Shown here in pieces: positions 1-8,416 of a stretch of 32,000 nt of DNA. A program made the position numbers and the translations under genes. Every line of letters begins with the position of its first letter. The first letter of the stretch is position 1. The stretch comes from Xanthomonas campestris pv. campestris str. ATCC 33913. Its GTDB lineage: Bacteria; Pseudomonadota; Gammaproteobacteria; Xanthomonadales; Xanthomonadaceae. The stretch is from assembly GCF_000007145.1 (NCBI RefSeq), contig NC_003902.1, positions 817,436 through 849,435 on the forward strand, written 5' to 3'. Under the pieces are notes generated by a model. That model searched no databases, was not told the DNA's origin, and saw only the letters and a program-made list of their open reading frames with translations.

Positions 1-1
1 C

Positions 2-436
2 CCGGACTTTGCCGCCATGCTGCGTGCGCCCCGTGCAGCTGCCCAGCTGGCCGTGCCTGCGGACCCGGCCCTGGCGCTGCAGCCGGTGGACGCCATCTCC
101 GGTGCCCTGATGCTGATGCAGCGCAGCCTGTTCGACCGCCTGGACGGCTGGGACGGCGGCTACCGCCTGCATGCCGAGGACCTGGACCTGTGCCGGCGTG
201 CGCGCCAGGCCGGCGCACTGGTGGCGGTGGCCAATGACCTGCAGGTGGTGCACGTGCGTGGGGTCTCCAGCCGTTCGCGCCCGTTTTTTGTGGAATGGCA
301 CAAGCACCGCGGTCTGTGGCGGTATTTTTGCAAATTCGAGTCCGCGCAACGCGGGCTGCTGGTGCGGCTCGGGGTCTGGGCGGCGATCTGGACCCATGCG
401 GCGGCGCAGGTACCCCGGCTGCTACGCCAACGCTAG
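2..436 (+). CDS. glycosyltransferase family 2, C-terminal part (5' end lies outside the window)
   Basis: The frame is open from the window edge to TAG at 434-436. The sequence ISGALMLMQRSLFDRLDGWDGGYRLHAEDLDLCRRARQAG...VHVRG is the typical C-terminal half of a GT2 catalytic domain (the ED-DL-C/R block). Confidence 0.7.
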   Translation, partial: PDFAAMLRAPRAAAQLAVPADPALALQPVDAISGALMLMQRSLFDRLDGWDGGYRLHAEDLDLCRRARQAGALVAVANDLQVVHVRGVSSRSRPFFVEWHKHRGLWRYFCKFESAQRGLLVRLGVWAAIWTHAAAQVPRLLRQR

Positions 437-450
437 TTCGTCGCGTTAAA

Positions 451-527
451 TTTGTGATAAATCCGTGATGCGATAGTGTCCGGAACTGTGATACGGTTCT
501 CTTAGAAATGTGATCAAAGTCGATTGC
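451..527 (+). promoter_or_regulatory. array of five phased (T)GTGAT direct repeats in the low-GC spacer upstream of the polysaccharide cluster; candidate transcription-factor binding array
   Basis: GTGAT occurs at 454, 465, 488 and 510, with a GTGTC variant at 476. The spacings are 11, 11, 12 and 22 bp, about one helical turn. The proximal copy reads AAATGTGATCAAAGTCGATT, whose left half equals the CRP/Clp consensus half-site AAATGTGATC. This is the only AT-rich stretch between the GT2 stop (436) and the next start (566). Confidence 0.45.
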
Positions 528-565
528 TTCCTGTCCCTTCCGGGTCCCCCACCAGGAAATCTGCA

Positions 566-1600
566 ATGTCCCTACAGAACGACCCGCGCTCGCGGGTACG
601 TCAGCCGTGCGCCACCCCCTCACGGTCCGGCTCGGTTGAGCGGGCGTCAGCGTGCAGCCAGCCCCAACGGCGTCCCCTCCAGCGGGCGGCCATGTCACTG
701 CTTGCGGTGGGTTGCCTGATCGCCGCGCTGCCCGACACTGCCATGGCCGGTGCCTGGACCCAGCCGCAAGGCGACACTCTGGTGATCGTCAAGGCGCTGC
801 ATAGCGATGGACGCGGTTGGTTCGATGACAGCCATCACCGCACCACCTTCGGTGATGGACAGCAGTTCGATGGCAACGGGCGTAGCCGCCAGGACCAGCT
901 CAATGTCTACGTCGAGCACGGCCTGACTGACCAACTGAGCGTCATCGGCAACTTCTATTTCACCGACGTGGGTTTCAGCAATCACGGCGGAGACGGCCGC
1001 ACCCGCGCCAGCACCACCGGCTTCGCCGATCAGGAAATCGGCCTGCGCTACGCGCTGCCGAGTGCGCAGGACGATGTCTGGCGCAGTTCAGTGCAGGCAC
1101 TGGTGAGCATCCCAGCCTATGGCCGCAGCAAGACCTACCACCCGAACACCCCTGGTGCGAATTCCGACCCGGCCTTGGGATTGGGTGACTATGGTCTGGA
1201 GTTGCGCTACAGCCGCGGGCGTGGATACACGCTGGGTGGGCGCAATGGCTATGTTGATCTCGGCGGTGCGGTGCGTCTGCGCGGCAGTGCCGCCTCCGAC
1301 GAACTGCGGGTGGATGCCTCCACTGGCCTGAGTCTGACCCCCAGCTGGCTAGTGCTTGGCGAACTCAACGTGATCCAGGGCTTGGGCAACGGGCGTAACA
1401 ACTTCGACGTGCCCGGCTCTGCTGGTGGCGTCAGTTTCGTCGCCACCGGCACCAACTACGACCTCACCAAGCTGCAGCTGTCCACGCTGTATACCGCCCC
1501 CGGTGGTAGCCAGTGGCAGGTGGGCTACCAGCAGCCAGTGATGGGCCGCAATACCGGTGCTGCCGGCGGGCCATTCGTGGCCGCCTGGTGGCGGTTCTAG
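566..1600 (+). CDS. outer-membrane beta-barrel protein (putative polysaccharide export porin)
   Basis: The hydrophobic signal core and cleavage site are MSLLAVGCLIAALPDTAMA/GAW. The sequence has alternating beta-strand patterns and ends in WWRF, a C-terminal aromatic OMP signature. ATG 566 has AGGAAA 6 nt upstream and gives a positively charged n-region. ATG 692 is an alternative start. ATG 524 is unlikely. Confidence 0.65.
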   Translation: MSLQNDPRSRVRQPCATPSRSGSVERASACSQPQRRPLQRAAMSLLAVGCLIAALPDTAMAGAWTQPQGDTLVIVKALHSDGRGWFDDSHHRTTFGDGQQFDGNGRSRQDQLNVYVEHGLTDQLSVIGNFYFTDVGFSNHGGDGRTRASTTGFADQEIGLRYALPSAQDDVWRSSVQALVSIPAYGRSKTYHPNTPGANSDPALGLGDYGLELRYSRGRGYTLGGRNGYVDLGGAVRLRGSAASDELRVDASTGLSLTPSWLVLGELNVIQGLGNGRNNFDVPGSAGGVSFVATGTNYDLTKLQLSTLYTAPGGSQWQVGYQQPVMGRNTGAAGGPFVAAWWRF

Positions 1601-1613
1601 GGTAGGGCCGACA

Positions 1614-3521
1614 ATGACGGTCACCTGCGAAATGGACGCGCTGGGACGGGCGCCGGACATCGGCCGCGAACGCGGCTTGTTGGGGCGTTCGCTGGTGTCT
1701 GCCGGCGTCATCACCGACGAGCAACTGCGCGCCGCGCTTGCCTTGCAGCAACGCTGGAATTCGCGCCTGGGCGATGTGATCCTGGCCCAGCGCGGCGTGC
1801 CGGCGCAGCGGTTCTACGCCATCGTGGCCGCGCACTTCGGGCTGCAGTTCGTCGACCTGGTGCAACAGCCGCCGGACCCCGAGCTGCTCACCGCCACCGA
1901 CCTGGATGTGTATGCGCAGCGGCTGATCCTGCCGTGGCGGCGCGAGGACGGTGTGCTGGTGCTGGCCGTGGCCGACCCGGACCCGGCGCTGTTCGCCTGG
2001 GCGCGCGAGCATTACGGGGCGCAGGTGCGCTTCGTCGGCACTGCCAAGTTCGACATCATCTGGAGCCTGCAGCGCTACGCCGACGAGCAGCTCACCGACA
2101 ATGCGCTGAACCTGCTGGCCGCACACGCGCCTACCTATTCCGCACGCCAGGTGGTCACCCGCGGGCAGAAGTTCACCTTGTGGGCGATTGCCGCGGTGCT
2201 GGTGGCGGCGATCGCGGCGTTCCCCATCATTACGCTGATCACCATCAATGTGCTGGTGGCGTTGGGCTTTCTGGCGACCTTCGGCCTGAAGTTGCTGCTG
2301 GTGTGGTTCGGCTCGCGCCACCGCATCGACATCAAGGTCACCGAAGACGAAGTGGCTGCGCTGCGCGATGACGACCTGCCGGTCTATACCGTGCTGGTGC
2401 CGATGTACAAGGAGCCGGAAGTCCTGCCGATCCTGGCCAATGCGCTGCGCAAGCTGGATTACCCGATCAGCAAGCTCGACGTGAAACTGGTGCTGGAAGC
2501 CGACGATTTCGACACCATCGAAGCGGCCAAGAAACTCGGCCTGGAAGCGTTCTTCGAAATCATCCGGGTGCCGCCGTCGCAGCCCAAGACCAAGCCCAAG
2601 GCCTGCAACTACGCGCTGCATTTTGCGCGCGGCGAACTGCTCACCATCTACGACGCCGAAGACAAGCCCGAGCCGGATCAGCTCAAGCGCGTGGTGGCTG
2701 CGTTCCGCAAGGCGGAAAAAGACGTGGTGTGCATCCAGGCGCGCTTGAACTACTACAACGCCGACGAAAACTGGCTGACGCGGATGTTCACGCTGGAGTA
2801 CACGCTCTGGTTCGACTTCTACCTGCCGGCGCTGGAATACCTGCGCATTCCGATTCCGCTGGGCGGCACCTCCAATCACTTCCGGCTGGACGTGTTGCGG
2901 CAGGTGCGCGCGTGGGACCCGTACAACGTCACCGAAGACGCTGACCTTGGCGTGCGGCTGATCCAGAACGGCTACCGCGTCAACGTGGTCAATTCCACCA
3001 CGTTCGAAGAAGCCAACGTCAGCATCCCCAACTGGATCCGGCAGCGTTCGCGCTGGCTCAAGGGCTACATGCAGACCTGGCTGGTGCACATGCGCGACCC
3101 GGTGCATCTGTACCGCAGCACCGGGTTCAAGGGGTTTTGGGGCTTTCAGTTCTTCATTGGCGGTAATTTTTTCATCGCACTGGGTGTGCCGGTGATGTGG
3201 ACGCTGTGCCTGATCAGCATGCTGAGCGGTGCACGCATATTTGATGCGACCTTTCCACCGTGGCTGGCCACGATCTCGCTGGTCAATCTGCTGTTGGCCA
3301 ACGCGTTCTTTATCTACGTCACGCTGGTGGCCGCGTTCAAGCGCGACTACTTCAAGCTCGCGCCGTATGCGCTGACGGTGCCGTTCTATTGGTTGCTGCA
3401 GTCGATCGCGGCCTACAAGGGTCTGTGGCAGTTGATCCGCAATCCGTTCTACTGGGAGAAGACCACGCATGGCATCAGCAAGCATTCCGAACAAGAGCGC
3501 CGCGCCGCACTCGAAGAGTGA
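1614..3521 (+). CDS. membrane-bound processive family-2 glycosyltransferase (polysaccharide synthase) with an N-terminal MshEN/T2SSE_N c-di-GMP-binding domain
   Basis: N-terminus: LLGRSLVSAGVITDEQLRAALALQ, then a 5-aa spacer, then RLGDVILAQRGVPAQRFYAIVAAHFGLQFVDL. This is the MshEN tandem-motif layout. TM helices follow (FTLWAIAAVLVAAIAAFPIITLITINVLVALGFL). The GT2 motifs are VLVPMYKEPE, LEADD, YDAEDKPEPD and QRSRW (3042..3056). More TM helices lie at the C-terminus. ATG 1614 lies just after the upstream stop at 1600. The start at 1557 in the ORF track would overlap the upstream gene. Confidence 0.88.
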   Translation: MTVTCEMDALGRAPDIGRERGLLGRSLVSAGVITDEQLRAALALQQRWNSRLGDVILAQRGVPAQRFYAIVAAHFGLQFVDLVQQPPDPELLTATDLDVYAQRLILPWRREDGVLVLAVADPDPALFAWAREHYGAQVRFVGTAKFDIIWSLQRYADEQLTDNALNLLAAHAPTYSARQVVTRGQKFTLWAIAAVLVAAIAAFPIITLITINVLVALGFLATFGLKLLLVWFGSRHRIDIKVTEDEVAALRDDDLPVYTVLVPMYKEPEVLPILANALRKLDYPISKLDVKLVLEADDFDTIEAAKKLGLEAFFEIIRVPPSQPKTKPKACNYALHFARGELLTIYDAEDKPEPDQLKRVVAAFRKAEKDVVCIQARLNYYNADENWLTRMFTLEYTLWFDFYLPALEYLRIPIPLGGTSNHFRLDVLRQVRAWDPYNVTEDADLGVRLIQNGYRVNVVNSTTFEEANVSIPNWIRQRSRWLKGYMQTWLVHMRDPVHLYRSTGFKGFWGFQFFIGGNFFIALGVPVMWTLCLISMLSGARIFDATFPPWLATISLVNLLLANAFFIYVTLVAAFKRDYFKLAPYALTVPFYWLLQSIAAYKGLWQLIRNPFYWEKTTHGISKHSEQERRAALEE

Positions 3522-4812
3522 GCCGGGCGCCGTGCGCCGCGACAGCGGGCTGCCGGCGTTCCTGGTGGCGGTGGTGGCGTTGTCGCTGCTGAGCCAGCCG
3601 TTGCTGGTGCAGTCGCTGGGCAGCGCGGCACCGGCGGTGGCGCCCACGGTGGGGTTGCCGGCGACCGGCTTGCTGACCTGGCTGATCGATGTCGCTGCGC
3701 ACCGCTGGAACCTGCCGTTCCAGGTGTGGCCGTTCGTGGCAGTGGCCGCCAATGCGCTGTTCCTGTCGTTGCTATGGCGCGATCTGGCCGGCGTGTTCGG
3801 GCGCGGCTGGGCCAGCGGGTTGACCTTGCTGGTGGGCTGCAACCCGCTGTTCCTGCTGCCGATTGCCGCCGGTGGCAGCCAGGCAGTTGGCCTGCTTGCG
3901 TTCTACGGGTTGTGCCGCACGCTGCGCCGCCTGCAGGCGCCGGTGGAGGCCTTCACTTACCTGCGTATTGCCGGCTGGCTGTGCATCCTGTTGTGCCTGG
4001 ATCTGCAGACCCTGGCGCTATCGACGATGGTCGCGCCCTGGCTGCTGCTGGTGATGCCGCCGCAGATGCTGCGCAAGGCACCGGGCTCGTTCTATTTGGT
4101 GTGCTATCTGCCGTTCGTGTTCCTGGTCGGCATGTGGGCCTACATCAATCTGACCATGTTCAATGCGCCGTGGCCGACGTTGTCCAGCACCGCCGCCATT
4201 GCGCACCCGCTGCCGTTGCCGCTGCAGGCGCATGCCGACGGTTGGCTGCCGGCGCTGCGTTGGGGTGTGGCGGCCGTGGCGTGTTTCCCATTGCTGGCGT
4301 TGGTGATGCGCAGCCGCAGCGGCGTGTTGGCGCGCGGCGTGCTCGCCAGTGCGGGTACGGTGATCTGCGCGGCGGCGCTGTCGTTCGCGTTCGGCTGGGC
4401 CGGTTTCGATGCCTTGCTGCTGCTGTGGGTGCCGGCCGCATTGTTGCTGCGCGCGCTGCGTGCCGATCAACGTGGCCAGGCCGCCGGCCTGCTGCTGTTG
4501 GGCGTGCTGGGTGCGGCGTGGGTGCAGCCGCAGGGCTGGGGCCGCTGGATGCAGGCGCCATCGGCTGAACAGGCACAGGCGCACGGCGAGCCGATCGTGG
4601 TGACCGCGATGGCGGCGCTGCCGATGACGGACGGGCAGTCTGCTGTGGCAGCGCGCATTGCGCCGCCGGCCGGCGCTGATGCATTGCCCGCGGTCGCCAA
4701 GCCCGTTGCGGCGGCTGACGGGCGCACCGCACCCTCCGGCGCAACTGCATGCACGCAACCGTCGGCGCTGTCGTCGAATCAGGGGTCTGCCGCATGCTCA
4801 AGCACGTTCTAA
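3469..4812 (+). CDS. polytopic inner-membrane protein of unknown function with an Ala/Pro-rich C-terminal tail
   Basis: It has about 10 hydrophobic segments, for example FLVAVVALSLLSQPLL, VWPFVAVAANALFLSLLW, LTLLVGCNPLFLLPIAAGG and FYLVCYLPFVFLVGMWAYI. GGGAGAAG lies 8-10 nt upstream of ATG 3469, which overlaps the synthase gene by 53 nt. GTG 3532 is a non-overlapping alternative start. I recognise no family. Confidence 0.7.
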   Translation: MASASIPNKSAAPHSKSEPGAVRRDSGLPAFLVAVVALSLLSQPLLVQSLGSAAPAVAPTVGLPATGLLTWLIDVAAHRWNLPFQVWPFVAVAANALFLSLLWRDLAGVFGRGWASGLTLLVGCNPLFLLPIAAGGSQAVGLLAFYGLCRTLRRLQAPVEAFTYLRIAGWLCILLCLDLQTLALSTMVAPWLLLVMPPQMLRKAPGSFYLVCYLPFVFLVGMWAYINLTMFNAPWPTLSSTAAIAHPLPLPLQAHADGWLPALRWGVAAVACFPLLALVMRSRSGVLARGVLASAGTVICAAALSFAFGWAGFDALLLLWVPAALLLRALRADQRGQAAGLLLLGVLGAAWVQPQGWGRWMQAPSAEQAQAHGEPIVVTAMAALPMTDGQSAVAARIAPPAGADALPAVAKPVAAADGRTAPSGATACTQPSALSSNQGSAACSSTF

Positions 4813-5762
4813 ACGCCTGGCTAATGCTGGCGATCTGCATGCTTGCATCCGGCTGCAACGCGGCGCCATCGACCTGGATGGGCGCCAACGTCAAGGTGTC
4901 GGCCAACGCGCCGTGGGAAAGCGACGCGGCAGCGCAATCGTTGAATGCGCTGGCTGACACCGGTGCGAGCAAGGCCTTGTTGATCGCCTTCGCGTGGCAG
5001 GCAACGCCGCAGTCCAACGACCCGGTGCTGGGCAGCGACAGCAGCCTGGCCGCGATGCGCGCAGCGTTGCGGCAAAGCCACGCGGCCGGGCTGCAGCCCA
5101 CGCTCAAGGTGCATCTGTGGATTCCGGGGCATTGGGCCGGCGATGCTGCGCCGGCCGATCAGGCAGCGTGGTTTGCCGCCTACCAGCGCGCGCTGCTGCC
5201 GCTGGCGCGGCTTGCCGAAGACGAGCACGCCGAGGCGTTGGTGATCGGCACCGAGCTGCGCCAATTGCAGGACGCACCGCAATGGCCGGCCCTGGTGGCG
5301 GCGGTGCGCGCTGTCTACGGCGGCAAGCTGCTGTACGTTGCCGACGGCATGGAGCACGCGGAAACATTCCGCTACTGGTCGCTGTTCGATGCGGTGGGCA
5401 CCAGCCTGTATCCGCGTCTGTCTGAAGCGGCGGCCAAACGGCGCCCGGAGATGGAGGCCGCCGCGCAGCGCCTGCAGGACCTGGGCAAGCGCGTCGGTAA
5501 GCCGGTGTGGGTGGCCGAGCTGGGGCTGCGTTCGGCACGCGGCAGCCTGGCGGCGCCATGGGAGAGCCCGGAACAGCGCACCGCGGCGGTCGATACAAAA
5601 CTGCAATTGCAGGTGCTGCAACAGTGGCGCGCGGTGTTGCAGGCGCATGGCGTGGAAGGCATCGCGCTGTGGTGCTGGTACACCGACCCCAAGGCCGGCG
5701 GTCCCGGGGATAGCGACTTCACCGTGCAGGGCAAGCCGGCGCAACGAGTGCTGGCGGAGTAA
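4794..5762 (+). CDS. lipoprotein, clan GH-A-like (beta/alpha)8 glycoside hydrolase
   Basis: Signal peptide and lipobox: MLKHVLNAWLMLAICMLASG/C. Candidate acid/base Glu is in VIGTELRQL (gag 5253..5255). Candidate nucleophile Glu is in VWVAELG (gag 5517..5519), 88 aa later, as in GH-A enzymes. ATG 4794 overlaps the upstream gene by 19 nt. Confidence 0.7.
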   Translation: MLKHVLNAWLMLAICMLASGCNAAPSTWMGANVKVSANAPWESDAAAQSLNALADTGASKALLIAFAWQATPQSNDPVLGSDSSLAAMRAALRQSHAAGLQPTLKVHLWIPGHWAGDAAPADQAAWFAAYQRALLPLARLAEDEHAEALVIGTELRQLQDAPQWPALVAAVRAVYGGKLLYVADGMEHAETFRYWSLFDAVGTSLYPRLSEAAAKRRPEMEAAAQRLQDLGKRVGKPVWVAELGLRSARGSLAAPWESPEQRTAAVDTKLQLQVLQQWRAVLQAHGVEGIALWCWYTDPKAGGPGDSDFTVQGKPAQRVLAE

Positions 5763-6339
5763 GCGCCGCTATTAGAACGACGACACAGCCGCCAAGCGAA
5801 AGCGGCCGTGCTCGGAATCGGCATCTAACCCCGAACACTCCGGTTTCTCCGCGCCGTCCCCGACCACCTGACGATTGCTCGCTACGCGTTGTCAGCAGCT
5901 CCAAGTGGGCGCGTGGATATGCTGCTTCGAAATGCGCGCGGTGCGCTGCCTTCTTAGGCAGTCGATGACTGTGCGCTGCGAGTTCGGCGCACATGCAGTC
6001 GAGATGCGCGCGGATTTCCGTCGATACGATCCCGCTAGCTGAGTCGGTGCTGCGTCACGCGTCCTCGAACGACACGCGCCAGACAGGCGTGACCGCTGCG
6101 GAGCACATGGATAGTGCGTTCCAACCTCGCGGCTGCTCACAACGCGTCGCCCGCAGCCCTCGGCGTGATCGCAAATCCGCGTCCTGTACGCACTGAGCCC
6201 GCTTGAACGGCCTGACGGATGCAGCGCCGTATGCGTCTGCTGTTGCGTTCGTCTGCAGCGGGGAACACTGCCTGCGCTCACCGGTGTCTCAATGCCACGA
6301 CACGCACCCGCCCCGCCGCTGCGGGCATAATCCGGCAGC

Positions 6340-7536
6340 ATGATCATTCATTCGCTGCTCGACACCGATCTGTACAAGTTCACCATGATGCAGGCGGTGC
6401 TGCATCAGCACCCGGCCGCGCAGGTGGACTACCGCTTCAAGTGCCGCACACCCGGCGTGGATCTGGCGCAGTTCATCGACGAGATCTCGCGTGAGATCGA
6501 CGCGCTGTGCCGGCTGCGCCTGCGCGAGGACGAGGTGGACTACCTGCGCAGCCTGCGCTTCATCAAGCCGGACTTCGCCGACTTTCTCGCGTTGTTCCAC
6601 CTGGACCGCAAATACCTGGCCCTGGCCGCCTCGGCCGCCCACCCGGGCGAGATCGAGCTGACCATCCGCGGGCCCTGGTTGCACACCATCCTGTTCGAAG
6701 TGCCGCTGCTGGCGATCATCAACGAGGTGTGGTTCCGCAACACCTCCGAGCCGGATTTTGAAGAAGGCCGCAGCCGCCTGCGCGAGAAGGTACGCAGCCT
6801 GCGCAGCATGCCGGCCGGTTGCAAGATCGCCGATTACGGCACGCGCCGCCGCTATTCGCGGCAATGGCATGGCGAACTGCTACCGCTGCTGCGCGATGGT
6901 TTGGGCGAGCAATTCGTCGGTACCAGTAATGTGTTTTTCGCCAAGCAATACGGGCTGACCCCACTGGGCACCATGGCGCACGAATACCTGCAGGCATTCC
7001 AGGCGCTGGGCCCGCGGCTGCGGGATTCGCAGGTCGCGGCGTTGGACTCGTGGGCGCGCGAATACCGCGGCGACCTCGGCATTGCGCTGTCGGATGTGGT
7101 GGGCCTGGACGCGTTCCTGCGCGACTTCGATCTGTATTTCTGCAAGCTGTTCGACGGCATGCGCCACGATTCCGGCGACCCGTTCGACTGGGGCGAGCGG
7201 GTGATCGCGCATCTGGAAGCGCACCGCGTGGATCCGCGCACCAAGGTGCTGGTCTTCAGCGACGGGCTGAACATCGACAAGGTGATGCGGCTGTACGAAC
7301 ACTTCAGCCCGCGCTGCCGGCTGGCGTTCGGCGTGGGCACCAGCCTGACCAACGACCTGGGCCCGACGCCCTTGCAGATCGTCATCAAGATGGTCCGCTG
7401 CAATGGGCAGCCGGTGGCCAAGCTCAGCGATTCGCCGGGCAAGAGCATGTGCGAAGACCTGGGCTACCTGCGCTACCTGCGCGATGTGTTCGGCCTGCCG
7501 CCGATGCCGGAAGCGGGTGACCCAGCGCGTCAGTGA
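6340..7536 (+). CDS. pncB: nicotinate phosphoribosyltransferase
   Basis: The N-terminus [25 protein letters not shown] and [11 protein letters not shown] are hallmark PncB sequences. At 398 aa it is full length. Confidence 0.95.
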
Positions 7537-7587: not shown

Positions 7588-8332
7588 ATGACCCAACTGC
7601 GCAACACCGCCTGGATCGAACTGCAGGCGCGCCAGGCGCGCTTGCTGGTCGAGCAGGGGCGGGCGGGCGAAGCGCAACAACTGCTGGCGCGCACTGAAGC
7701 CGCACTCGGCAATCAGCTCGACGACCCGCAACTGCTGGCAGCGCTGGCCGGTGCGCACGCCGACGCCGGCAACACCCCGCGCGCATTGACCCTGGCCCAG
7801 CGCCTGGTCACCGGCGCCACCCCGAGTACCGAAGACCGCCTGCAGTACGCTCAGCGGTTTCACCTACGGCCACGGTGGCTACTTCAGCCCGCAGGACTAT
7901 GTGGACCTGGGATTCCCGGTGCACTGGAGCGGCCGCAGCGCCGGGCAGACGGTGAACTGGAAGGTGGACGCCAACATCGGTGTGCAGCATTTCACCACCG
8001 AAGCCACGCCGTATTTCCCGACCGATCCCACCTTGCAGCAGGCCGCCTACGATGCCGCCTCGGTCGCGGCGTTGCTGGGCCTGGTCAACCGCTATACCGA
8101 TCCGGTGTACGCGGGCGAAAGCCGCACCGGCGTGTCCTACAACCTCAGTGGCGCGGCCGAATGGCAGGTGGCACCGCAGTTGTTCCTGGGCGGGCGCATG
8201 ACCTTCAACAACGCGCGCGACTACAACCAGTTCAGCAGCAATCTCTATCTGCGTTTCGTGCTGGATCGGCTGGGTTCCGCGCTGGGCCGCGCGCCGCAGG
8301 TACTGACTTCGCCGTACGCGGCGGATCACTGA
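7588..8332 (+). pseudogene. cellulose-synthase subunit C (BcsC)-like remnant: a TPR fragment joined out of frame to the C-terminal beta-barrel segment
   Basis: Frame 1 (7588..~7860) encodes TPR-like LLVEQGRAGEAQQLLARTEAALG...RALTLAQRLV. After about 7860 that frame becomes Arg/Pro/Gly-rich junk. Frame 2, from about 7856, reads GFTYGHGGYFSPQDYVDLGFPVHWSGR...LYLRFVLDRL, which is the BcsC C-terminal domain signature, and ends at 8332. The roughly 1000 aa expected between the two parts are absent. Confidence 0.6.
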
Positions 8333-8416
8333 GCCAACGCAGTGCAGTGCGCAAGGTGTGCGGTGATGCGTGCGCGCGCCGGGCACGTTGCACGCCTGGG
8401 CTGCAGCGGCAATGAA

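Follow-up and report, generated by a model that had tools for sequence, protein, structure and literature searches.

Positions 2-5762 of a 32,000-nucleotide (32-kb) stretch of Xanthomonas campestris pv. campestris (Xcc) ATCC 33913 DNA, here called the window (G+C content about 65%), very probably represent the published xagABCD operon together with the 3' end of a neighbouring family 2 glycosyltransferase (GT2) gene. With high confidence, 692-1600 was assigned to xagA, 1614-3521 to xagB, 3469-4812 to xagC and 4794-5762 to xagD. The cluster is not a new system; the operon has already been published, and its parts are re-annotated in this work. Together they would form a synthase-dependent exopolysaccharide system controlled by cyclic di-GMP (c-di-GMP) at two levels, namely transcription and the enzyme itself. 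All positions are window coordinates on the plus strand, for which the list of open reading frames (ORFs) used here covers 1-5762. Codes such as L034 denote homologous stretches retrieved from other genomes. The features of the region are as follows (aa, amino acids).

2-436, plus strand: 3' part of a GT2 gene, 144 codons of a 279-aa soluble-type GT2 (Pfam Glyco_tranf_2_3, E 2.1e-6)
437-691, plus strand: xagA promoter and leader, the spacer from the GT2 stop codon to the xagA ATG at 692
509-524, plus strand: Clp operator TGTGATCAAAGTCGAT, an exact match to TGTGA-N6-TCGAT
692-1600, plus strand: xagA, 302 aa; predicted to be a small outer-membrane beta-barrel with a signal peptide; starts at 566 and 524 are also possible
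1614-3521, plus strand: xagB, 635 aa; inner-membrane synthase with an MshEN domain, a pair of membrane helices, a GT2 domain and further membrane helices at the C-terminus
1680-2093, plus strand: MshEN domain of XagB, residues 23-160; within it, at residues 23-71, the 53-residue c-di-GMP-binding motif region
2385-3305, plus strand: GT2 catalytic domain of XagB, residues 258-564, with DAED at 2652-2663, TED at 2931-2939 and QRSRW at 3042-3056
3469-4812, plus strand: xagC, 447 aa; polytopic inner-membrane protein with a GT-C-like modelled fold and an Ala/Pro-rich C-terminal tail
4794-5762, plus strand: xagD, 322 aa; probable GH113 lipoprotein, catalytic Glu154 (5253-5255) and Glu242 (5517-5519)

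Identification of the cluster as xagABCD

The XagB protein is 100% identical to its counterpart in Xcc 8004 (CP000050.1, around 4.22 Mb, reverse strand), and it is found unchanged, with the same neighbours, in many other Xcc genomes. The four proteins neighbouring the synthase share 98-100% identity with those of Xcc 8004, the upstream GT2 being 100% identical. The synthase is flanked by AAY50599 (XagA) and AAY50597 (XagC) in Xcc 8004 and by AAM39993 and AAM39995 in ATCC 33913, and the UniRef cluster of XagA is named 'Biofilm-related exported protein'. XagB itself is XCC0678 (AAM39994) of ATCC 33913, listed with exactly the same sequence by Wang et al. (2016), while the published xagB is XC_3555, a glycosyltransferase (PMC3364877). 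From the genome position, the identity of XCC0678 with AAM39994 and the comparison with Ferriphaselus, we infer that the cluster corresponds to locus tags XC_3553 to XC_3556. In Ferriphaselus sp. R-1, Kato et al. described 'XagB-, XagC-, XagD-like' genes after a BcsB-like gene (PMC4643136). The locus retrieved from this strain (L034; synthase 59% identical) has a BcsB-like gene followed by homologues of XagB, XagC and XagD, and this agreement in gene order provides a second, independent link to xag. An initial annotation, made from the sequence alone, had left the identity with xag open and had stated that a match to a characterised system would remove the novelty of the cluster. The question is now answered in favour of xag, more fully xagABCD, and with this match the novelty is gone.

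For the xagABC(D) genes of Xcc 8004, PMC3528676, PMC3609779 and PMC3364877 refer to Tao, Swarup and Zhang (2010), and the cluster is required for extracellular polysaccharide (EPS) and biofilm (PMC3609779, PMC3364877, PMC3528676). The operon name xagABCD was used for X. oryzae pv. oryzicola, where the genes are co-induced 3- to 14-fold in an rpfG mutant and where deletion of xagA or xagB abolishes the extra biofilm of that mutant (PMC3609779). Mutation of xagB lowers EPS and abolishes biofilm, leaving lipopolysaccharide (LPS) unaffected (PMC3364877).

Gene junctions depend on the choice of start codons. With the starts used here, xagA and xagB are separated by 13 nucleotides (nt) (1601-1613), xagB and xagC overlap by 53 nt (3469-3521) and xagC and xagD by 19 nt (4794-4812), so that the distances given in the initial annotation were confirmed from the ORF list. 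The xagA frame, with its stop at 1600, has candidate starts at 524 (TTG), 566 (ATG) and 692 (ATG), the last being the one annotated in Xcc 8004. The longest form of the xagB frame begins at 1557, and the annotated start is the ATG at 1614. For xagC the NCBI pipeline uses a GTG at 3571, which gives a protein of 413 aa and leaves a 49-nt gap; for xagD some records place the start at 4749. The XagC N-terminus read from 3469 (MASAS...) is kept in relatives down to 36% identity, and a Shine-Dalgarno-like GGGAGAAG motif stands before this start. The tight packing that had been claimed for five genes holds for the four genes xagA to xagD; the first GT2 gene is set apart by a promoter-bearing spacer of 255 nt, or of 129 nt with the ATG at 566. 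As to content, Pfam and NCBIfam agree with the partial GT2, the GT2 synthase with a c-di-GMP receptor-type domain and the glycoside hydrolase that had been proposed, and domain, profile and model matches together account for the whole parts list, i.e. outer-membrane barrel, inner-membrane synthase, polytopic partner and periplasmic lipoprotein hydrolase. Scans for promoters and hairpins were uninformative either way on operon boundaries: the sigma-70 scan of 1-6500 gave no hits, and terminator-like hairpins inside the coding regions were weak only and no more numerous than in shuffled sequence.

Clp operator and transcriptional control

Gel shift assays and gusA fusions have established that TGTGA-N6-TCGAT in the xagA promoter is bound by Clp, a CRP-like regulator responsive to c-di-GMP, and that Clp represses this promoter; the binding is prevented by c-di-GMP (PMC3528676). 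In the 32-kb window the pattern has a single match, at 509-524 just upstream of xagA, compared with 0.05 matches expected from shuffled sequence. According to the literature, Clp at this site represses the xagA promoter, and c-di-GMP releases it. DSF (diffusible signal factor)/RpfG signalling lowers c-di-GMP and thereby keeps xag expression low; both DSF/RpfG and RsmA act via c-di-GMP levels.

Three of the 12 TGTGAT hexamers in the window (453, 487 and 509) fall within 62 nt at the xagA promoter. Those at 453 and 487 may be extra Clp half-sites; only the third, at 509, belongs to the published operator. The reporter described in PMC3528676 as comprising '211 bp upstream of the start codon (GTG)' fits no in-frame GTG start found here, and the primer table of that paper holds no xagA primers.

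XagB, a synthase with a candidate c-di-GMP receptor domain

In XagB, the Pfam MshEN model matched residues 75-160 (E 2.2e-14), and the NCBIfam c-di-GMP motif model NF053729 matched residues 23-71 with 42.8 bits against a cut-off of 38. Matches of the N-terminus in the Protein Data Bank (PDB) are the c-di-GMP-binding MshEN domains of Thermus PilF, Vibrio MshE and PilB proteins. The GT2 domain (Pfam, E 2e-23) contains the signatures of processive enzymes, i.e. DAED (residues 347-350), TED (440-442) and QRSRW (477-481), all checked in the translation and near-invariant in 65 relatives of less than 80% identity. Hydrophobic segments at 184-234 (two helices), 513-540 and 549-576 flank this domain on both sides. 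To judge from these motifs, XagB would polymerise a nucleotide sugar and thread the chain across the inner membrane.

The published MshEN motif, RLGxx(L/V/I)(L/V/I)xxG(L/V/I)(L/V/I)xxxxLxxxLxxQ, comes in two copies. Motif I of XagB (LLGRSLVSAGVITDEQLRAALALQ) is perfect save for a Leu in place of the Arg. Motif II (RLGDVILAQRGVPAQRFYAIVAAH) keeps RLG and the hydrophobic pair; its turn reads R-G instead of the expected single Gly, and its final Gln is replaced by His. Residues G24, L27, L38, W48 and R51-L52-G53 are conserved in distant relatives. Escherichia coli NfrB, which likewise combines GT2 and MshEN, binds c-di-GMP with a dissociation constant (Kd) of about 1 uM, and binding is required for its function (PMC8669469). 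As in NfrB, c-di-GMP would bind the cytoplasmic N-terminal MshEN domain of XagB and switch on the GT2 domain. Wang et al. (2016) list XCC0678 (AAM39994, labelled 'NrfB') in their supplement as an MshEN protein, in a column separate from XpsE, PilB and GspE of the same genome; no paper linking XCC0678 to the name xagB was found in a literature search. Roelofs et al. (2015) predicted that xagABC, then known only as transcriptionally controlled by c-di-GMP, encodes a c-di-GMP-binding protein, and the MshEN domain of XagB is the obvious candidate for it.

Some evidence points the other way. In addition to the imperfect motifs, the first-motif Arg, which is Leu in Xcc, lacks conservation across the family; comparable substitutions cost XpsE (GspE) of X. 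campestris strain 17 (Xcc17) its c-di-GMP binding (Wang et al. 2016), and the literature search yielded no report of XagB binding c-di-GMP and no binding assay. These points would fit a degenerate MshEN domain that no longer binds c-di-GMP and acts as a docking or dimerisation module, control being exerted via Clp only. We consider this unlikely, given that the motif model scores above its curated cut-off, that NfrB has a Pro at the first-motif Arg position and yet binds with the affinity mentioned, that Wang et al. (2016) placed XCC0678 in a different column from XpsE, PilB and GspE, that the residues listed above are kept in distant relatives, and that genes for REC-GGDEF response regulators are embedded in 28 of 80 related clusters (see below). 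Much less credible still is a reading of XagB as a non-processive lipid or LPS glycosyltransferase, in which case the cluster would modify the envelope and secrete no polymer. Polymer synthesis is itself a prediction, and the Ferriphaselus homologue was automatically annotated as a beta-monoglucosyldiacylglycerol synthase (Kato et al., PMC4643136). Against this reading stand the near-invariant QRSRW, TED and DAED signatures and the helices flanking the GT2 domain, the conserved neighbours (periplasmic hydrolase and outer-membrane barrel, plus a BcsB-like subunit elsewhere) and the lowering of EPS, not LPS, by xagB mutation (PMC3364877). A c-di-GMP-gated, processive synthase is the reading retained here.

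XagD and XagA: predicted polymer and its export

XagD matched the Pfam GH113 model with E 1.8e-31 (110 bits, cut-off 27). All seven of its solved relatives are endo-beta-1,4-mannanases of GH113, the best being AaManA (3CIV, 4CD6; E about 1e-14), whose acid/base Glu151 and nucleophile Glu231 align with Glu154 (in GTELR) and Glu242 (in VAELG) of XagD. The N-terminus MLKHVLNAWLMLAICMLASG/C fits a lipoprotein signal peptide (LASG/C; slashes mark cleavage sites). Because the GH113 match, both catalytic Glu residues and the lipoprotein signal coincide, XagD is most likely an active periplasmic, membrane-anchored hydrolase. It would trim or release the chain in the periplasm, as BcsZ, PgaB, PelA and AlgL do elsewhere.

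The polymer, still called uncharacterised in a 2019 review, probably has a backbone with beta-1,4-mannosidic linkages made from GDP-mannose, although this is the least secure part of the account. A beta-mannan-type chain is pointed to by the GH113 enzyme, by the published implication of the mannanase ManA in biofilm dispersal and by a recurrent neighbour: a gene for a bifunctional ManC (mannose-1-phosphate guanylyltransferase/mannose-6-phosphate isomerase) adjoins the Xag-like cluster in eight of 80 loci from at least four lineages, namely in L036 (3352-4857), L062, L032, L074, L038, L050, L039 and L065.

XagA has a signal peptide, MSLLAVGCLIAALPDTAMA/GAW (cleavage AMA/GAW, read from the ATG at 692), a mature part of about 280 aa and the C-terminus ...AAWWRF. 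In an alignment of 27 relatives of 23-62% identity, the start of the mature protein is conserved (AWT/VQ..G), hydrophobic stretches alternate, one Trp is invariant and the terminal Phe nearly so. XagA itself matched no Pfam or NCBIfam family, Phenol_MetA_deg (PF13557) included; five of the 27 relatives matched Phenol_MetA_deg, with a best E value of 1.7e-6. The family profile matched one solved structure, 4RL8 (E 5.5e-4), a 'meta-pathway of phenol degradation-like' outer-membrane protein that we take to be a 12-stranded COG4313 channel. An outer-membrane barrel is thus a well supported prediction, XagA being at most a distant relative of the COG4313/Phenol_MetA_deg channels. The outer-membrane porin of the initial annotation is upheld in so far as a barrel is likely, the XagA family resembling a solved one; with its small size and without tetratricopeptide repeats (TPR), XagA is unlike BcsC, PgaA, PelB and AlgK/AlgE. 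This small barrel would let the polymer out through the outer membrane.

A BcsC-like remnant (7588-8415) about 2 kb downstream of xagD was considered as the missing TPR porin and rejected. It is frameshifted, retains only about one third of the barrel domain and is located past pncB; of the fetched loci, only that of X. nasturtii (L053) contains it as well. Its TPR-like ORF from 7588 (TPR_16, E 1.6e-3) continues in another frame (7901-8332), where Pfam BCSC_C is matched over its last third only (230-335 of 336, E 2.4e-25).

Both the nature of the polymer and its exit can be explained differently. There is a real, though not the favoured, possibility that GH113 misleads on the substrate and that the product is not a beta-mannan: it could be an N-acetylmannosamine (ManNAc) polymer like the proposed NfrB product, a beta-glucan or a mixed polymer. 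Membership in GH113 suggests a substrate and does not prove it, the identity of XagD to the solved mannanases is low (see the E value above), and ManC adjoins in only 10% of the loci. The best NCBIfam GT2 matches of XagB are CelA (cellulose synthase), PgaC and NodC, all far below their cut-offs, and most relatives carry a BcsB-like gene. These observations are set against the uniform beta-1,4-mannanase identity of the solved XagD relatives with conservation of both catalytic Glu residues, the recurrence of ManC in several lineages, and a weak match of XagB to 6YV7 (E 5e-5), the closest solved GT2 outside the MshEN region and presumably an archaeal membrane mannosyltransferase. As for the exit, passage of a polysaccharide through a barrel of the XagA type is a prediction, and Pfam found TPR repeats neither in XagA nor in any other protein of the cluster, which encodes no TPR scaffold. 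The small channel 4RL8 is, we assume, implicated in the uptake of hydrophobic molecules. XagA might then be a COG4313-type uptake channel that is merely co-transcribed, the polymer being exported via another outer-membrane protein. Besides the lack of TPR, its sole structural relative, the small Phenol_MetA_deg barrel 4RL8, fits such a role, and alphaproteobacterial loci place the XagA-like gene after the REC-GGDEF gene, not beside the synthase. An uptake role is nevertheless improbable: an XagA-like gene lies in or beside the cluster in 64 of 80 loci, even with loci cut by contig ends included, and deletion of xagA gives the same loss of biofilm as deletion of xagB (PMC3609779). Export of a beta-mannan-type polymer through XagA is the explanation carried forward.

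XagC, a polytopic membrane protein modelled as GT-C-like

No Pfam or NCBIfam family matched XagC. Among 1.84 billion representative proteins, all scanned with HMMER, no more than 99 relatives reached E <=1e-3, most of them 480-540 aa long. An AlphaFold2 model was built from 66 diverse sequences (predicted local distance difference test, pLDDT, 78.6; predicted template-modelling score, pTM, 0.79); it has a confident membrane core, with most core blocks above 90, and replaced a poor model (pLDDT 57) from 24 mostly Xanthomonas sequences. When this model was compared with the PDB by Foldseek, the top 12 hits were all GT-C enzymes (ArnT, AftB, STT3, ALG9, AftA, ALG12 and PglB) with probabilities of 0.9-1.0, a best E value of 5e-3 and template-modelling (TM) scores of 0.29-0.43. 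PMT_2 was weakly matched by four of the 66 relatives, and some orthologues carry the UniRef name 'RgtA/B/C/D-like'. Pro, Gly and Leu make up most of the conserved positions; the only acidic one is D178, present in about 77% of the sequences. Accordingly modelled, XagC appears GT-C-like in fold, with catalysis putative. The xagC start codon sits inside the conserved 3' end of xagB, and XagC would be made in step with XagB by translational coupling. As a GT-C-like membrane partner it may stabilise the synthase or modify the chain on the periplasmic side, which is the weakest step of the proposed mechanism.

In Xanthomonas, residues from about 385 to 447 (4620-4812) form a variable Ala/Pro-rich tail with two Cys kept and the terminus ...ACSSAF. 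Outside Xanthomonas, this place is taken in the relatives by a conserved C-terminal domain of about 110 aa, and they also carry a BcsB-like gene. The joint loss of this domain and of the BcsB-like gene is a qualitative trend only, given that the low-complexity tails of Xanthomonas align to the profile and confound the test.

Distribution and neighbourhood of homologous clusters

A scan of one genome per species confirmed full-length XagB relatives in at least 595 species genomes of Gamma-, Alpha- and Zetaproteobacteria, Acidobacteria and Desulfobulbaceae. For the neighbourhood analysis, 80 loci were kept in which XagB is full-length including the MshEN region (51-94% identity), and their ORFs were searched with hidden Markov models (HMMs). 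They stem from Xanthomonas, Pseudoxanthomonas, Halopseudomonas, Pseudomonas saliphila, Ferriphaselus and Mariprofundus, and further from Azospirillaceae, Bradyrhizobium, Aurantimonas, Rhodobacteraceae, Acidobacteria and Desulfobulbaceae.

In nearly all loci that reach far enough, xagB is followed immediately by a XagC-like gene. XagA-like genes were found in 64 of the 80 loci, XagD-like genes in 55 and BcsB-like genes in 56, the latter mostly directly upstream of xagB. No BcsB-like gene was detected in the 32-kb window or in the loci examined from Xanthomonas proper. In Pseudoxanthomonas (L023) the order is GT2, BcsB-like, xagA, xagB, xagC, xagD; the 255-nt promoter spacer of Xcc thus occupies the place that a BcsB-like gene holds in a relative. 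A gene for a REC-GGDEF response regulator is present in 28 loci, mostly between the xagC-like gene and the xagA-like gene or a histidine kinase gene, which suggests a dedicated local source of c-di-GMP. Examples are L069 (11356-12387), L082 (11229-14250, followed by a Cache/PAS histidine kinase gene) and many Alphaproteobacteria.

The upstream GT2, whose full-length protein matched Glycos_transf_2 (E 4e-20), keeps its position only in Xanthomonadaceae-type loci among those fetched. It lies outside the published operon, beyond its promoter, and on account of this restriction it may be a lineage-specific accessory gene.

In some xanthomonads the cluster shows signs of decay, in keeping with the xagA pseudogene published for X. 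fuscans. In X. arboricola CFBP 7645 (L028, 8001-9236) the match to xagB is interrupted at residue 412, and annotations of X. arboricola pv. pruni contain xagB fragments of 428 and 462 aa. In X. phaseoli ATCC 49119 (L016, 6821-8001) about 1.2 kb is inserted between xagA and xagB, and pncB is split as well. The spacer between xagD and pncB (5763-6339) measures 577 nt in Xcc, and none of its ORFs matches a family; elsewhere among the fetched Xanthomonas loci the xagD and pncB protein matches are closer together, about 90-420 nt apart.

A tentatively proposed class of synthase-dependent systems

As a tentative proposal, and one more doubtful than the identification of the operon, Xag may be the genetically tractable founder of a separate, widespread synthase-dependent class that makes a beta-1,4-mannan-type polymer from GDP-mannose. 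Such a class would be marked by a GT2 synthase with an N-terminal MshEN domain, an obligatory GT-C-like XagC, a GH113 enzyme, a small barrel without TPR and, ancestrally, a BcsB-like subunit. To our knowledge, synthase-dependent systems that make mannan have not been described from bacteria, and none of the synthase-dependent systems is known to contain a GT-C-like subunit. Apart from the points raised above, three observations tell against the working of the operon proposed in the preceding sections: the GT-C assignment of XagC is weak (Foldseek E 5e-3, TM about 0.4), no acidic residue in the first periplasmic loop, as GT-C enzymes use for catalysis, is conserved in 70% or more of the XagC family, and co-transcription of the four genes rests on the published papers and the overlapping frames.

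The system is genetically defined and biochemically blank, and its family is wide and little studied; the re-annotation makes questions on xag directly testable. A Xag-type gene set is also the foremost candidate for the formation of the twisted iron-oxide stalks that iron-oxidising bacteria have. Since these bacteria are not genetically manipulable, Xanthomonas could serve as an experimental model for the Xag/sfz family.

Comparison with known systems

The closest comparison is with xagABC(D) of Xcc 8004, which is the same locus: the synthase is identical, the Clp operator precedes the first gene, the A-B-C-D order and the role in EPS and biofilm agree, and there are no differences. What is added here is the annotation of MshEN in XagB, GH113 in XagD, the GT-C-like model of XagC and the COG4313-like barrel of XagA, none of which was linked to the name xag in the literature searched.

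With the Bcs, Pga, Pel and alginate systems Xag shares an inner-membrane synthase, a c-di-GMP receptor (a candidate one in Xag), a periplasmic hydrolase or lyase and the logic of an outer-membrane barrel. BcsA and PgaC have GT2 signature motifs in common with XagB, and relatives of Xag carry a BcsB-like subunit. In contrast to these systems, Xag has no PilZ, PgaD, PelD or Alg44, its candidate receptor being MshEN; its outer-membrane protein is without TPR; its hydrolase belongs to GH113 instead of GH8 (BcsZ), GH153 (PgaB) or GH166 (PelA); and XagC has no counterpart in them. The remark in the initial annotation that none of the subunits looks like BcsA/B or Pga proteins is borne out by the curated models, all far below their cut-offs: XagB scored 42.4 bits vs 699 with TIGR03030 and 29.7 vs 992 with NF008558 (both BcsA), with no PilZ match, and 35 bits vs 422 with the PgaC/IcaA model TIGR03937. 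No BcsB-, PgaA-, PgaB- or PgaD-like protein accompanies it. A separate pgaABCD operon is present in some Xanthomonas species, not in Xcc.

The NfrB-NfrA-YbcH system of E. coli (PMC8669469, PMC8669472) shares with Xag a processive-type GT2 fused to MshEN, an outer-membrane protein with a periplasmic accessory protein, and a secreted polysaccharide, and relatives of both systems sometimes encode a dedicated diguanylate cyclase alongside. It differs in that MshEN is C-terminal in NfrB and N-terminal in XagB. The NfrB model NF008411 gave XagB only 35.3 bits vs a cut-off of 1170, with residues 21-190, the MshEN part, matching model positions 482-647. NfrA combines TPR and a barrel in one large protein, in contrast to the small barrel XagA; nothing in Nfr corresponds to XagC or to the GH113 enzyme, and the proposed Nfr polymer is ManNAc.

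The 'stalk formation' clusters sfz/sfb of iron-oxidising Zeta- and Betaproteobacteria (PMC4643136, PMC8250860) are homologous to xag, with Sfz2 corresponding to XagB (55-59% identity, N-terminal domain included), Sfz3 to XagC and Sfz4 to XagD. They differ in starting with a BcsB-like Sfz1, which Xanthomonas does not have, and in a XagC homologue that keeps the conserved C-terminal domain. Their function was proposed from comparative genomics only (PMC4643136, PMC8250860). Koeksoy et al. read the Sfz2 N-terminus as type II secretion EpsE-like and Sfz4 as GH10, and left Sfz5 without a function (PMC8250860). Their homology to XagB and XagD makes the former an MshEN domain and Sfz4 a GH113 enzyme. 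Earlier work reported no xagA-like gene in iron oxidisers; in Mariprofundus ferrooxydans PV-1 (L046, 12540-13496) an ORF of about 315 aa right after the XagD homologue matches the XagA-family HMM and, from its position, is taken to be the Sfz5 of the stalk-cluster paper. In sum, Xag works like the Bcs, Pga, Pel, alginate and Nfr machines but belongs to none of them.

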